Positions 22,154 to 49,500 of a stretch of 64,000 nt of DNA are shown here, in pieces; the stretch's first letter is position 1, and every line of letters starts with the position of its first letter. Under the pieces are notes generated by a model. It was not told the origin of the DNA. It was given only the letters and a program-made list of their open reading frames with translations, and did no database searches. The stretch is taken from NCBI RefSeq assembly GCF_048403405.1, contig NZ_CP183129.1. One strand, given 5' to 3'. The position numbers and the translations under genes were made by a program. This stretch comes from Escherichia coli. GTDB lineage: Bacteria; Pseudomonadota; Gammaproteobacteria; Enterobacterales; Enterobacteriaceae.

Positions 22154-23239
22154 ATGGCTGGAAACACAATTGGACAACTCTTTCGCGTAACCACCTTCGG
22201 CGAATCGCACGGGCTGGCGCTCGGCTGCATCGTCGATGGTGTTCCGCCAGGCATTCCGCTGACGGAAGCGGACCTGCAACATGACCTTGATCGTCGTCGC
22301 CCTGGGACATCGCGCTATACCACCCAGCGCCGCGAGCCGGATCAGGTCAAAATACTCTCCGGTGTTTTTGAAGGTGTTACTACCGGCACCAGCATTGGCT
22401 TGTTGATCGAAAATACCGACCAGCGTTCTCAGGATTACAGCGCCATTAAAGACGTTTTCCGTCCAGGCCATGCCGATTACACCTACGAACAAAAATACGG
22501 CCTGCGCGATTATCGCGGCGGCGGGCGCTCTTCCGCCCGCGAAACCGCCATGCGCGTGGCGGCAGGGGCGATTGCAAAAAAATATCTCGCCGAGAAATTT
22601 GGCATTGAGATTCGCGGCTGCCTGACCCAGATGGGTGACATTCCGCTGGAAATCAAAGACTGGTCGCAGGTCGAGCAAAATCCGTTTTTCTGCCCGGACC
22701 CGGACAAAATCGACGCGTTAGATGCACTGATGCGCGCGCTGAAAAAAGAGGGCGACTCCATCGGCGCGAAAGTCACCGTTGTTGCCAGTGGCGTCCCCGC
22801 CGGACTTGGCGAGCCGGTCTTTGATCGCCTGGATGCCGACATCGCCCATGCGCTGATGAGCATCAACGCGGTGAAAGGCGTAGAAATTGGTGATGGTTTT
22901 GACGTGGTAGCGCTGCGTGGCAGCCAGAACCGCGACGAAATCACCAAAGACGGTTTCCAGAGCAACCATGCGGGCGGCATTCTTGGCGGTATCAGCAGCG
23001 GGCAGCAAATCATTGCCCATATGGCGCTGAAGCCAACCTCCAGCATTACCGTGCCAGGGCGTACCATTAACCGCTTTGGCGAAGAAGTTGAGATGATCAC
23101 CAAAGGCCGTCACGATCCTTGTGTCGGGATCCGTGCGGTGCCGATCGCAGAAGCGATGCTGGCGATCGTTTTAATGGATCACCTGTTACGGCAACGGGCG
23201 CAAAATGCCGATGTGAAGACTGATATTCCACGCTGGTAA
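22154..23239 (+). CDS. aroC: Chorismate synthase AroC
   Basis: 361-aa product [20 protein letters not shown]... Confidence 0.95.
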
Positions 23240-23242
23240 AAA

Positions 23243-24067
23243 ATGAACAAAACCGCGATTGCGCTACTGGCCCTGCTTGCCAGTAGCGCCAGCCTGGCAG
23301 CGACGCCGTGGCAAAAAATAACCCAACCTGTGCCGGGTAGCGCACAATCGATAGGCAGTTTTTCTAATGGCTGTATCGTCGGCGCTGACACGCTGCCGAT
23401 ACAGTCCGAACATTATCAGGTCATGCGTACCGATCAGCGCCGCTATTTCGGACACCCGGATCTGGTGATGTTTATCCAGCGTCTGAGTAGCCAGGTGAGC
23501 AATCTGGGCTTGGGCACGGTGCTGATTGGCGATATGGGGATGCCTGCTGGTGGTCGTTTCAACGGCGGTCACGCCAGCCACCAGACCGGACTGGATGTTG
23601 ATATCTTCCTGCAACTGCCAAAAACACGCTGGACCTCCGCGCAGCTCTTGCGCCCGCAAGCGTTAGATTTAGTTTCCCGCGACGGTAAACACGTTGTCCC
23701 GACGCTGTGGAAGCCGGAAATTTTCAGCTTGATCAAACTCGCCGCCCAGGACAAAGACGTCACGCGCATTTTTGTTAATCCGGCGATTAAACAACAACTT
23801 TGCCTTGATGCGGGCACCGATCGCGACTGGTTGCGCAAAGTGCGACCCTGGTTCCAGCATCGCGCGCATATGCATGTACGATTACGTTGTCCTGCCGATA
23901 GTCTGGAGTGTGAAGATCAACCTTTACCGCCACCGGGCGATGGTTGCGGGGCAGAACTGCAAAGCTGGTTTGAACCTCCAAAACCGGGAACAACAAAGCC
24001 TGAGAAGAAGACACCGCCTCCGTTGCCGCCTTCCTGCCAGGCGCTACTGGATGAGCACGTGATCTAA
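23243..24067 (+). CDS. mepA: Penicillin-insensitive murein DD-endopeptidase MepA
   Basis: 274-aa product with signal peptide; stop overlaps the ATG at 24067. Confidence 0.95.
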
Positions 24068-24131
24068 TGGAAACGTTTAATAGCCTGTTTATGGTTTCCC
24101 CGCTGTTGCTGGGAGTTCTCTTTTTGTCGCC

Positions 24132-24875
24132 ATGCTGGCGGGATTTATCGACTCGATTGCCGGTGGCGGTGGGTTACTCACCATTCCGGCATTGATGGCA
24201 GCGGGGATGTCTCCCGCTAATGCGCTGGCAACCAATAAACTGCAAGCCTGCGGCGGCTCTATTTCCGCCACTATCTACTTTATTCGCCGCAAAGTGGTTA
24301 GTTTAAGCGATCAGAAACTCAATATTGCCATGACCTTTGTCGGCTCAATGAGCGGCGCACTGTTGGTACAGTACGTTCAGGCTGATGTCTTACGGCAGAT
24401 TTTGCCCATTCTGGTGATTTGTATCGGCCTCTATTTCTTGCTGATGCCAAAGCTGGGTGAAGAAGATCGCCAGCGCCGGATGTACGGTTTACCCTTCGCG
24501 TTAATTGCCGGTGGCTGCGTCGGTTTTTATGACGGATTCTTTGGTCCGGCAGCCGGATCGTTTTACGCGCTGGCCTTTGTTACGCTGTGCGGATTCAACC
24601 TCGCCAAAGCCACGGCTCACGCCAAATTACTCAACGCAACGTCAAATATCGGCGGTTTACTGCTGTTTATTCTCGGTGGCAAAGTGATTTGGGCGACAGG
24701 ATTCGTGATGCTGGTGGGGCAGTTCCTCGGCGCGCGCATGGGTTCACGACTGGTGTTGAGCAAAGGACAAAAGCTGATCCGCCCGATGATTGTTATTGTC
24801 TCAGCGGTGATGAGTGCCAAATTACTTTACGATAGCCACGGACAGGAGATCCTCCACTGGTTGGGGATGAACTAA
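24132..24875 (+). CDS. yfcA: TauE/SafE-family membrane protein YfcA, N-terminally disrupted by an apparent frameshift
   Basis: 247-aa ORF from an internal Met. The expected start at 24067 (coupled to the mepA stop) encodes [19 protein letters not shown] in another frame and stops after 37 codons; the frames differ at the T5 run at 24121-24125. Confidence 0.6.
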   Translation: MLAGFIDSIAGGGGLLTIPALMAAGMSPANALATNKLQACGGSISATIYFIRRKVVSLSDQKLNIAMTFVGSMSGALLVQYVQADVLRQILPILVICIGLYFLLMPKLGEEDRQRRMYGLPFALIAGGCVGFYDGFFGPAAGSFYALAFVTLCGFNLAKATAHAKLLNATSNIGGLLLFILGGKVIWATGFVMLVGQFLGARMGSRLVLSKGQKLIRPMIVIVSAVMSAKLLYDSHGQEILHWLGMN

Positions 24876-25423
24876 TGAACAGTACACACCACTATGAGCA
24901 GTTGATTGAAATTTTTAATAGCTGCTTTGCCGATGATTTTAATACCCGTCTGATTAAAGGCGACGACGAACCGATCTATCTTCCTGCTGATGCGGAAGTA
25001 CCGTATAACCGAATCGTCTTTGCTCATGGCTTTTATGCCAGCGCAATTCATGAGATTTCGCACTGGTGTATTGCCGGGAAAGCGCGCCGTGAGCTGGTTG
25101 ATTTCGGCTACTGGTATTGTCCCGACGGACGCGATGCCCAAACGCAAAGCCAGTTTGAAGATGTTGAAGTGAAGCCGCAGGCGCTGGACTGGTTGTTCTG
25201 TGTGGCGGCGGGATATCCGTTTAACGTCAGTTGCGACAATCTGGAAGGCGACTTCGAACCGGATCGTGTGGTGTTTCAACGGCGGGTACATGCACAGGTG
25301 ATGGATTATCTGGAAAACGGCATTCCTGAACGCCCGGCACGCTTCATTAAAGCATTACAAAATTATTATCACACGCCGGAACTTACGGCGGAACAGTTCC
25401 CGTGGCCGGAAGCGCTCAACTAA
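24875..25423 (+). CDS. epmC: Elongation factor P hydroxylase EpmC (YfcM)
   Basis: 182-aa product recognised by sequence. Confidence 0.9.
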   Translation: MNSTHHYEQLIEIFNSCFADDFNTRLIKGDDEPIYLPADAEVPYNRIVFAHGFYASAIHEISHWCIAGKARRELVDFGYWYCPDGRDAQTQSQFEDVEVKPQALDWLFCVAAGYPFNVSCDNLEGDFEPDRVVFQRRVHAQVMDYLENGIPERPARFIKALQNYYHTPELTAEQFPWPEALN

Positions 25424-29176: not shown

Positions 29177-29184
29177 TTCGCAGT

Positions 29185-29250
29185 AGGCCGGAGTAGGTCG
29201 GATAAGACGCGCCAGCGTCGCATCCAACATTACGCGCCAATGCGGCATCC
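29185..29250. repeat. REP/BIME-like repeat cluster
   Basis: GCCGGAGTAGGTCGGATAAGACGCGCCAGCGTCGCATCC...GCGGCATCCGACA, REP-type palindromes downstream of fabB. Confidence 0.55.
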
Positions 29251-34017: not shown

Positions 34018-35127
34018 TCACTCTGTTTCCGCTATCCATTCCGGGATTTTTGCCTCAAGCTCAAGCTGCGTGGTAAAGCCGCTGTTATCAATAGTGTGCT
34101 CGGCTTTTGCAATGATCCAGTCCTGATTATCAATCTCGCTTTTAAATCCTGTTACCGTACCATGCATTTCGGGGTAGAGTTCTGCACGTCCACGCGCCAG
34201 CGTGATGGAGAATGATGCGGCTCCGCGTTGTAGTTGCTGCCACTTTGCCGCCGCTGCGCGTCTTGCTGCCTGTTCGTTCTGATAGGTCTTGCGTAACACA
34301 AACACATTGCCTTCCGCGCCTTCCATATAATCACCTTCACGGCTGCTGCTTTTCTCCTTTTGGGGTTTTGGTGGTTTGCGGCGTTTCACGCTGACTTTTT
34401 TCTTTTCCCCGTAATTAAGATCAAGCCAGTAGGCGCGTACCCCCGTATACGCCTCGCGGTCAGCAATACGGAACTGATGGCGATCGCCGCTGCTGCGTGT
34501 AATGGCGAACGAGGGCAACGGCTGGCCCTGTGCGTTCACGCCACCACCTGGCATGATGAATAACAGATTGCCGCTTTTTACCGTGGTGATTGCGCCCAGC
34601 ATTTCCGCCATGCGCGTAAGGAAGGACATGTCGCTTTCTTCGGTCTGGTCGGCGTGGTCGATTTCGATATCCATCAGCATTTCGCTGATTTGTGGTTTCA
34701 GACCATACCGATGAGCGATGGCGGATACCACACGCTCAACGGTCACATCATGCCAGGACACCTCACGTTTAACGTTAAATTCATCCCGAAAATCTGCGCT
34801 TCTGGCTGAAACAGTCAGCCTGTCCGGCGGTCCTTCGTGAGCGATTTCATCAACAATGTAAGTGCCTTTTTCTGTCAGCGGTTCTCCTTTCCAGCCAATG
34901 AGAACCGTCAGGCGCGCGCCCCGTGGCGGTAGCTGCAACTGACCATCCGCATCATCCAGCGTGATGGTGAGCTGGTCCGCCTCAAATCCCCGGTTGTCGG
35001 TCAGTGACAGGCTCATCAGGCGCTCTGCCACGCCTGACAGCGTTTTACCCTCCGCGAGAATATCAAAATCCGGCATTTTCACGGGGTCTGTGCCCTGACT
35101 GAGCAATTGCATGGTGGTGTCGGTCAT
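34018..35127 (-). CDS. D: Phage tail protein D (late control gene D family)
   Basis: ATG at 35127 preceded by GGGAGGGAA; about 370 aa, gpD-like; the track ORF is extended 44 codons upstream. Confidence 0.8.
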   Translation of the reverse strand: MTDTTMQLLSQGTDPVKMPDFDILAEGKTLSGVAERLMSLSLTDNRGFEADQLTITLDDADGQLQLPPRGARLTVLIGWKGEPLTEKGTYIVDEIAHEGPPDRLTVSARSADFRDEFNVKREVSWHDVTVERVVSAIAHRYGLKPQISEMLMDIEIDHADQTEESDMSFLTRMAEMLGAITTVKSGNLLFIMPGGGVNAQGQPLPSFAITRSSGDRHQFRIADREAYTGVRAYWLDLNYGEKKKVSVKRRKPPKPQKEKSSSREGDYMEGAEGNVFVLRKTYQNEQAARRAAAAKWQQLQRGAASFSITLARGRAELYPEMHGTVTGFKSEIDNQDWIIAKAEHTIDNSGFTTQLELEAKIPEWIAETE

Positions 35128-35284
35128 CTGTTCCCTCCCTGTGCGGCATGGTCGCATGTGCGTGCGGAGGGGGTTACTGCTTTTTGTTGTCGCCGGGTCG
35201 GGAGAACGGCGCAGGGGTGAGATTACGCGCGTGGTGGGTGATGATTGTTGCCGAATCATTTAACGGATACAAGGGGCTGAAGCT

Positions 35285-40883: not shown

Positions 40884-40916
40884 CCGCTAATGGTCAGATT
40901 AGCGGTTATTTTGTTT
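40884..40916. terminator. Terminator hairpin between convergent U and invertase genes
   Basis: CCGCTAAT-ggtcag-ATTAGCGG followed by TTATTTTGTTT on the plus strand, with a T-run also on the minus-strand side; overlaps the invertase stop. Confidence 0.65.
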
Positions 40917-41493
40917 CCTGACTCTTCTCTATTGTTCCGATTGATTCTCCTGCGGGGTGGTAACGATAAATCGTCGATATACCAATGCCGTAAATTATTG
41001 CCAGTTGTTTTCTGTCGTGCCCGTTTTTGATCAGCCTTGCTATTTGCTCATGCTGTTCTTTTGTCAGCTTCGGTCGACGTCCGCCTGTGCGCCCCCGTGC
41101 GCGTGCTGCCGCCAGTCCGGCCAGTGTACGTTCAACAATTAATTCACGTTCCATTTCAGCCAGGGCACCCATCACGTGGAAGAAAAAACGCCCCATTGGA
41201 GAAGATGTATCTATGCTGTCGGTCAGACTGCGAAAATTAATTCCTCGCTCCCGTAGTTCCCCGACGAGAGAAATCAGATGTTTCATGCTTCGCCCGAGGC
41301 GATCCAGTTTCCAGACAACCAGCGTGTCACCTTTTTGAAGGCGCTTTAAAGCGCGTTTTAATCCCGGTCGGTCTGTCTTTGTCCCGCTTAATTTATCTTC
41401 AAATATTTGTTCACATCCTGCACAAACAAGAGCGTTTCGTTGCAGGTCTGTATTCTGGTCATTTGTTGATACCCTTACATAGCCAATCAGCAC
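40906..41493 (-). CDS. pin: Serine DNA invertase (Hin/Gin/Cin/Pin family)
   Basis: GTG at 41493 gives MLIGYVRVSTNDQNTDLQRNAL... with the catalytic Ser in GYVRVST and a C-terminal HTH; the track ORF starts at TTG 41511. Confidence 0.9.
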   Translation of the reverse strand: MLIGYVRVSTNDQNTDLQRNALVCAGCEQIFEDKLSGTKTDRPGLKRALKRLQKGDTLVVWKLDRLGRSMKHLISLVGELRERGINFRSLTDSIDTSSPMGRFFFHVMGALAEMERELIVERTLAGLAAARARGRTGGRRPKLTKEQHEQIARLIKNGHDRKQLAIIYGIGISTIYRYHPAGESIGTIEKSQETK

Positions 41494-41547
41494 GCTGAAT
41501 CTCCCGTCCAAAAGCGCAAATCATGCCATGCAGGCCGGAAACGGCCA

Positions 41548-49223: not shown

Positions 49224-49500
49224 GGTTGTTGTCCTCGTTGTTCAGTCGTTGCAGCCTGCGCTGTTCCAGTAATTCAATGGCCCGTTTATCCGCGTTACAG
49301 GTTTCCAGTGCATCCAGAAGGCGGTCGCCCCATATACCGAGATTTCCCCATGTGGGAGTATCAGGGAAGGGGGGAGGCGTTACCGGTATGGTCAGCGTCT
49401 GCGGTATAAGCCGGACTGACGGCGCTGGCAGTGGCGCGTTCTGCGTGCCTGCGCAGCCTGTCAGTAAAACGAGCGTCAGGCAAAGCGTGGGCGCATTCAT
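49210..49500 (-). CDS. lysC: Outer-membrane lipoprotein o-spanin (LysC/Rz1-like)
   Basis: 96-aa product with lipobox LTGCAG and Pro-rich body, overlapping the 3' part of the i-spanin gene in another frame. Confidence 0.7.
   Translation of the reverse strand: MNAPTLCLTLVLLTGCAGTQNAPLPAPSVRLIPQTLTIPVTPPPFPDTPTWGNLGIWGDRLLDALETCNADKRAIELLEQRRLQRLNNEDNNHAEN

Follow-up and report, generated by a model that had tools for sequence, protein, structure and literature searches.

Within a 64,000-nucleotide stretch of Escherichia coli chromosome, referred to here as the window, the gene yfcA is divided between two reading frames, which raises the question of whether the strain has lost the gene or its published sequence has lost a base. 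Along the window lie a tRNA-Arg gene (argW), yfdC, fadL, fadIJ, a yfc fimbrial operon and the series prmB-aroC-mepA-yfcA-epmC-yfcL, followed by mnmC, fabB, yfcJ, flk and a P2-like prophage. The gene order mepA-yfcA-epmC is present with overlapping stop and start codons. Upstream, mepA (penicillin-insensitive murein endopeptidase; 23243..24067, + strand) is intact according to the list of open reading frames, the annotation of relatives and the junction sequence GATCTAATGGAA, and its TAA stop runs one base into the yfcA ATG at 24067, the shared A of TAATG. Downstream, epmC (EF-P hydroxylase; 24875..25423, + strand) is also intact, and its ATG overlaps the yfcA stop (CTAATGAAC). The whole yfcA locus (24067..24875, + strand) measures 809 bp in the window versus 810 bp in relatives.

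A preliminary description of the window had placed a frameshift in yfcA at a T5 run (24121..24125, + strand), and direct reading and translation bear this out. From the ATG coupled to the mepA stop, where a plausible YfcA N-terminus had been noted, 19 native residues are read before the frame is lost at the T5 run; 23 out-of-frame codons follow, ending at a TGA (24193-24195), and this 5' fragment (24067..24195, + strand) therefore comprises 42 codons in total instead of the 37 first counted. The rest of the protein continues, as had been stated, in another frame, which is open over 24084-24875 and reads ...FVAMLAGFIDSIAGGGG...; the first ATG of this frame opens a 247-aa product (24132..24875, + strand). 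The window as given thus holds 42-codon and 247-codon frames and no single uninterrupted frame of approximately 269 codons. It had been anticipated that one additional T would restore a single 269-aa frame, and inserting one T in silico does exactly this, giving a protein identical to K-12 YfcA (b2327) at 269/269 positions. In its T6 form the context of the run is GGGAGTTCTC-TTTTTT-GTCGCC. Missing from the 247-aa remnant are residues 1-22, and with them most of the first hydrophobic helix (residues 3-35 by hydropathy); upstream of its ATG at 24132, the closest GGGAG is 16 nt away, too distant for a normal ribosome-binding site.

Full-length YfcA might conceivably still be made from the T5 allele through programmed -1 ribosomal frameshifting or transcriptional slippage, and the frame change needed is indeed -1 and falls within a T-rich stretch. 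We regard such recoding as scarcely credible, since CTC TTT TTG is not an X XXY YYZ slippery heptamer, since transcriptional slippage needs a run of roughly 8-9 bases and T5 is far below this, and since the two-frame arrangement is not a conserved state. Approximately 99% of E. coli genomes, the closest relatives included, carry T6 and encode YfcA in a single frame, and alignment to relatives leaves a gap at the T5 run; neither a slippery heptamer nor a long homopolymer accompanies a two-frame arrangement conserved in relatives.

Judged from its sequence, the repaired gene is predicted to be the YfcA orthologue, a putative inner-membrane transporter of the TauE/SafE (TSUP) family. Repaired YfcA matches Pfam PF01925 (TauE/SafE) at 166.5 bits over residues 18-253 (gathering cut-off, 32.6 bits), and it matches the NCBIfam equivalog NF007909 (PRK10621) at 529.1 bits over profile positions 1-266 of 266 (cut-off, 383 bits). 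The 247-aa remnant still scores 163.2 bits against PF01925 and retains profile positions 6-237. Repaired yfcA differs from the K-12 gene at 24 of 810 sites, all of them synonymous and none nonsynonymous, and because the protein is identical to that of K-12 despite these differences, yfcA is judged to be under strong purifying selection. The repaired DNA is identical to that of strain MS 69-1 at 810/810 positions; the missing T is accordingly the only lesion in yfcA relative to that strain, and the gene carries no other decay. Our literature search found no experimental paper on E. coli YfcA, and nothing relevant to E. coli turned up on yfcA in connection with frameshifts, nanopore sequencing or TSUP.

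The preliminary description had proposed comparison with yfcA of related strains as a check, and the six closest complete genomes all carry T6. The collection searched, 5,426 complete E. coli genomes from RefSeq, did not include the window's own genome; across the 5,291-bp block that spans smrB to yfcL, one extra base is all that separates the six from the window. The exact T6 92-mer occurs in 3,947 genomes of the collection and the exact T5 91-mer in 43. Since 5,291 of 5,292 bases match the six closest genomes and 3,947 genomes carry the T6 92-mer, the yfcA frameshift is not a chance pattern of open reading frames and is a 1-bp deletion relative to these genomes. Three of the six relatives (MS 69-1, TUM14771 and 4621) were compared base by base with the window over 28.7 kb. 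Their identity to the window is 99.96-99.99%, and all three have T6 and intact yfcA (WP_000447361.1).

Only three positions over these 28.7 kb are private to the window: the contraction from T6 to T5 in yfcA, a contraction from G7 to G6 near 6948 in an intergenic region, and a C-to-T change at 19323 that replaces Pro with Ser in a fimbrial subunit. The G-run (6948-6953) lies just 3' of fadL and is G6 in the window versus G7 in the six closest relatives. We considered it as a second assembly error and withdrew this, since the run is naturally polymorphic: among genomes that share the flanking 91-mer, five have G6, including PCN033 and SCU-102 with their older accessions, and eight have G7. The fimbrial subunit altered at 19323 is a 174-aa protein of the yfc-type operon, and the exact protein is absent from a large protein collection. 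A comparison of the window with strain GF75 over 31 kb of prophage revealed zero indels, and this result together with the three private differences over 28.7 kb led us to reject the idea that the window comes from a generally error-ridden assembly.

Further observations concern other parts of the window. The tRNA-Arg(CCU) gene (3033-3107) adjoins a tyrosine-recombinase integrase gene (1714-2907) and a gene for a beta-helix protein (73-1569); the closest relatives have a UpaE autotransporter island at this tRNA gene instead, with content that differs from that of the window. The spacer between fabB and yfcJ (29179-29197) contains a 9-10 bp repeat (TCGGAGTAG-like) whose copy number varies between lineages, and here the window is the same as its close relatives. 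The P2-like prophage (approximately 31750-64000) adjoins flk; the closest relatives lack it, and in them pdxB directly follows flk. Its first few kilobases carry TagO-like, zinc-ribbon, hok/gef and ogr genes, and a recombinase gene (40906-41511) is flanked by oppositely oriented genes for tail fibre and tail-fibre assembly; parM-type partition genes are also present. A gpD-like open reading frame (34018-35259, minus strand) comprises 413 codons as a maximal frame, while the Pfam Phage_GPD match covers only residues 135-393; in GF75 and UID2404240038 the corresponding sequence is annotated as an 801-bp CDS and a partial fragment.

The preliminary description had left two options for yfcA: that the indel is real and inactivates the gene, or that the homopolymer was misread in sequencing. 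The comparative evidence favours the second, and we regard the first, a very recent 1-bp slippage deletion in the T6 run that inactivates yfcA, as unlikely. The deletion is present in the window sequence, which is otherwise clean over approximately 60 kb, natural indels arise most often by homopolymer slippage, and yfcA is not known to be essential. Against a genuine loss, six of the six closest relatives have T6, yfcA shows no further decay, and the ratio of 0 nonsynonymous to 24 synonymous differences from K-12 points to strong purifying selection. None of the signs of a genuine pseudogene that we looked for (a lesion common to relatives, further lesions or relaxed constraint) was found, and yfcA is intact in all six closest relatives.

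We then considered the T5 allele in public genomes, where the yfcA T-run is a site-specific hotspot, since control runs of six bases are contracted in only 0 and 1 genomes. In flk, a T6 run whose flank is well conserved is contracted in 0 genomes versus 3,099 with the native length. The opposite strand of an A6 run in aroC gives CTC-T6, which comes near to the yfcA context, and this run is contracted in 1 genome (APEC37) of 5,426; a first form of this control had no power, as only 14 genomes have the window's 91-mer there. With these counts (flk 0/3,099; aroC 1 genome), generic homopolymer noise was rejected as the source of the 43 T5 records. The CTC-T6 context by itself was also rejected as the maker of the hotspot, since aroC has this context on the other strand and is no hotspot. 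Direct reading found no Dam (GATC) or Dcm (CCWGG) site within approximately 30 nt of the T-run, so methylation does not explain the hotspot. The aroC run (22742-22747; CTCTTTTTTC on the other strand) is A5 in the nanopore-only APEC37 and in two GenBank-only assemblies (L009 and L015), which breaks aroC in all three; aroC is intact in the window.

The T5 records group by date and submission and not by ancestry. All 43 have accessions from 2023 or later, and they fall into approximately 14 submitter batches. In the strains that we compared, T5 genomes of one batch belong to different lineages, with 41-149 SNPs per 5.3 kb and different alleles of neighbouring genes. T5 is found in all of Ch1, C51, APEC20/16 and APEC37 (the Perm batch) and in all of EC26, EC43 and EC77 (the Cremona batch). 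The Perm genomes were sequenced with nanopore R10.4.1 only, basecalled with Guppy hac and assembled with Flye and medaka without short reads (PMC10652846). Two of them are also frameshifted in mepA or aroC. We also asked whether T5 marks a clade of K-12-like or ST10-type strains and rejected this, as the K-12-like T5 loci span at least four sublineages; one locus with the SNP set of the T5 genome 41EC2 has T6. Searches by strain name and accession for papers on the T5 batches found only those on the Perm batch and on 41EC2.

Two assemblies of one strain give the most direct comparison. The 2025 assembly of C600 (CM181231) has T5 and the 2018 assembly (CP031214) has T6, with no other difference over 20,092 bp; MG1655 has T6, and the batch of the 2025 record contains two other T5 strains. 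For C600, independent assemblies of one strain therefore give different run lengths. A further T5 locus, on a haplotype different from that of the window, occurs in strain UID2404240038 (NZ_CM142695.1), which also has the window's prophage at the same site. Relative to the window and GF75, this assembly has additional contractions, from G6 to G5 at window position 49369 and from A7 to A6 at 57404, and from these it appears to be error-prone.

Such recurrence on many backgrounds might suggest a real hypermutable, phase-variable T-run by which yfcA is switched on and off in many lineages. T5 does occur on at least five haplotype backgrounds, and it exceeds contraction at the two control runs by a factor of more than 40. 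We nevertheless hold a switch to be very improbable. It would be expected in all eras and technologies, and 0 of the 43 T5 records predate 2023; T5 is nearly absent from contigs of the size that short reads yield, it clusters by batch across unrelated strains, and the two C600 assemblies disagree. Six bases are, in addition, short for a contingency tract. The variation in tract length that we found depends on both technology and date.

The dependence on contig class was assessed in a far larger assembly collection, in which blocks with the truncated 247-aa product or the intact 269-aa product were counted by longest contig; block counts are not independent samples. Where the longest contig is 50-200 kb, as is typical of short-read isolate assemblies, 8 blocks have the truncated and 29,945 the intact product (0.03%). 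Where it exceeds 1 Mb, as in long-read assemblies, the counts are 58 and 5,905 (1.0%), and in fragmentary assemblies with a longest contig under 5 kb they are 468 and 5,936 (7.9%). At 0.2-1 Mb, 9 blocks have the truncated product. The ratio of truncated to intact products is thus approximately 36 times lower in short-read-sized contigs than in chromosome-sized ones. Among the matches listed, aroC, fabB, mnmC or pdxB is split nearby in 5 of 10 long GenBank contigs with the truncated product.

These data weigh further against a genuine deletion in the window, since T5 in public sequences follows batch, date and contig class and not phylogeny, and since the true frequency of the deletion, estimated from short-read-sized contigs, is approximately 0.03% versus approximately 1% in chromosome-scale contigs. 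A dependence on date, batch and contig class is not expected of a real recurrent mutation or of a phase-variable switch and points to technology. With T5 at approximately 1% in chromosome-scale sequence versus approximately 0.03-0.1% in short-read-type assemblies, well over 90% of the T5 runs seen in chromosome-scale sequence would be artefacts, if these frequencies hold.

Our data therefore favour the reading that the missing T of yfcA is a context-specific long-read consensus error and not a mutation of the strain, with a probability of about 0.8. The T6 run of yfcA would be a site at which recent long-read assemblies repeatedly under-call one T, and the assemblies affected would be those of the nanopore R10.4.1 era made with certain versions of basecaller and polisher. 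The window's own assembly presumably belongs to this error-prone class, with the basecaller or polisher as the probable cause of its T5. In the living strain, yfcA would then be intact, encode 269 aa and be translationally coupled to mepA upstream and to epmC downstream.

We put the figure no higher than about 0.8 because the rest of the window is clean and a hybrid assembly provides a counter-example. For the T5 genome 41EC2, MiSeq and R10.4.1 reads were combined by Unicycler (PMC11504851), and its T5 is the only indel relative to MG1655 in 20 kb. This T5 may be genuine or may derive from a long-read bridge. T5 in this one hybrid Illumina and nanopore assembly, together with the truncated product in a few short-read-sized blocks (the 8 at 50-200 kb and the 9 at 0.2-1 Mb), counts in favour of a genuine deletion. 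Three strains sequenced with R10.4.1 only are absent from the T5 list (PMC11963381); since some R10.4.1-only assemblies are not T5, the supposed error would have to vary with the version of the software.

If the deletion were real, YfcA would end after 19 native residues, with 42 codons translated, and a poorly initiated, N-terminally clipped remnant of 247 codons would be left; epmC would lose its coupling to translation upstream, and its expression might fall. We consider it improbable that T5 is real in this full sense, namely a fresh loss of YfcA that is polar on epmC, at a T-run that is a true hotspot recurrently knocking out yfcA across lineages. For the biology of the strain the locus carries little weight, as the gene is probably intact and its loss would otherwise be an ordinary single-gene loss. 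For annotation, a consensus error would matter more widely. Through the one-base deficit, NCBI's annotation pipeline PGAP reports yfcA as a 'frameshifted' pseudogene in no fewer than 43 complete E. coli genomes of RefSeq, and hundreds of contigs have brought the truncated 247-aa 'protein' into the databases. Counts of pseudogenes, or scoring of yfcA as present or absent, could take an artefact of technology for recurrent gene loss, and a yfcA labelled as frameshifted in a recent complete genome of E. coli should be read with the warning that this label probably reflects, in large part, a sequencing artefact.

Compared with known systems, the mepA-yfcA-epmC cluster of the window has the synteny and the overlapping stop/start junctions of the K-12 cluster. 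It differs in that K-12 yfcA is one unbroken frame, while the window, without one T of the T6 run, has frames of 42 and 247 codons. The 'frameshifted' yfcA genes called by PGAP (e.g., in Ch1, C51, APEC37, EC26 and the C600 record CM181231) are the same as that of the window in the T5 91-mer, in length and in predicted products, and PGAP applies this label to an 809-bp yfcA gene in the T5 records that we inspected. The lineage sets the window apart from them: the MS 69-1-like lineage to which it belongs has no other T5 member among the 5,426 genomes, and the known T5 records lie on other haplotype backgrounds. The homopolymer deletions known from long-read-only bacterial assemblies arise when one base of a short homopolymer is under-called and create a false pseudogene, as is probably the case here. 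Relative to the usual residual deletions of this kind, the probable error in yfcA is unusually site-specific.
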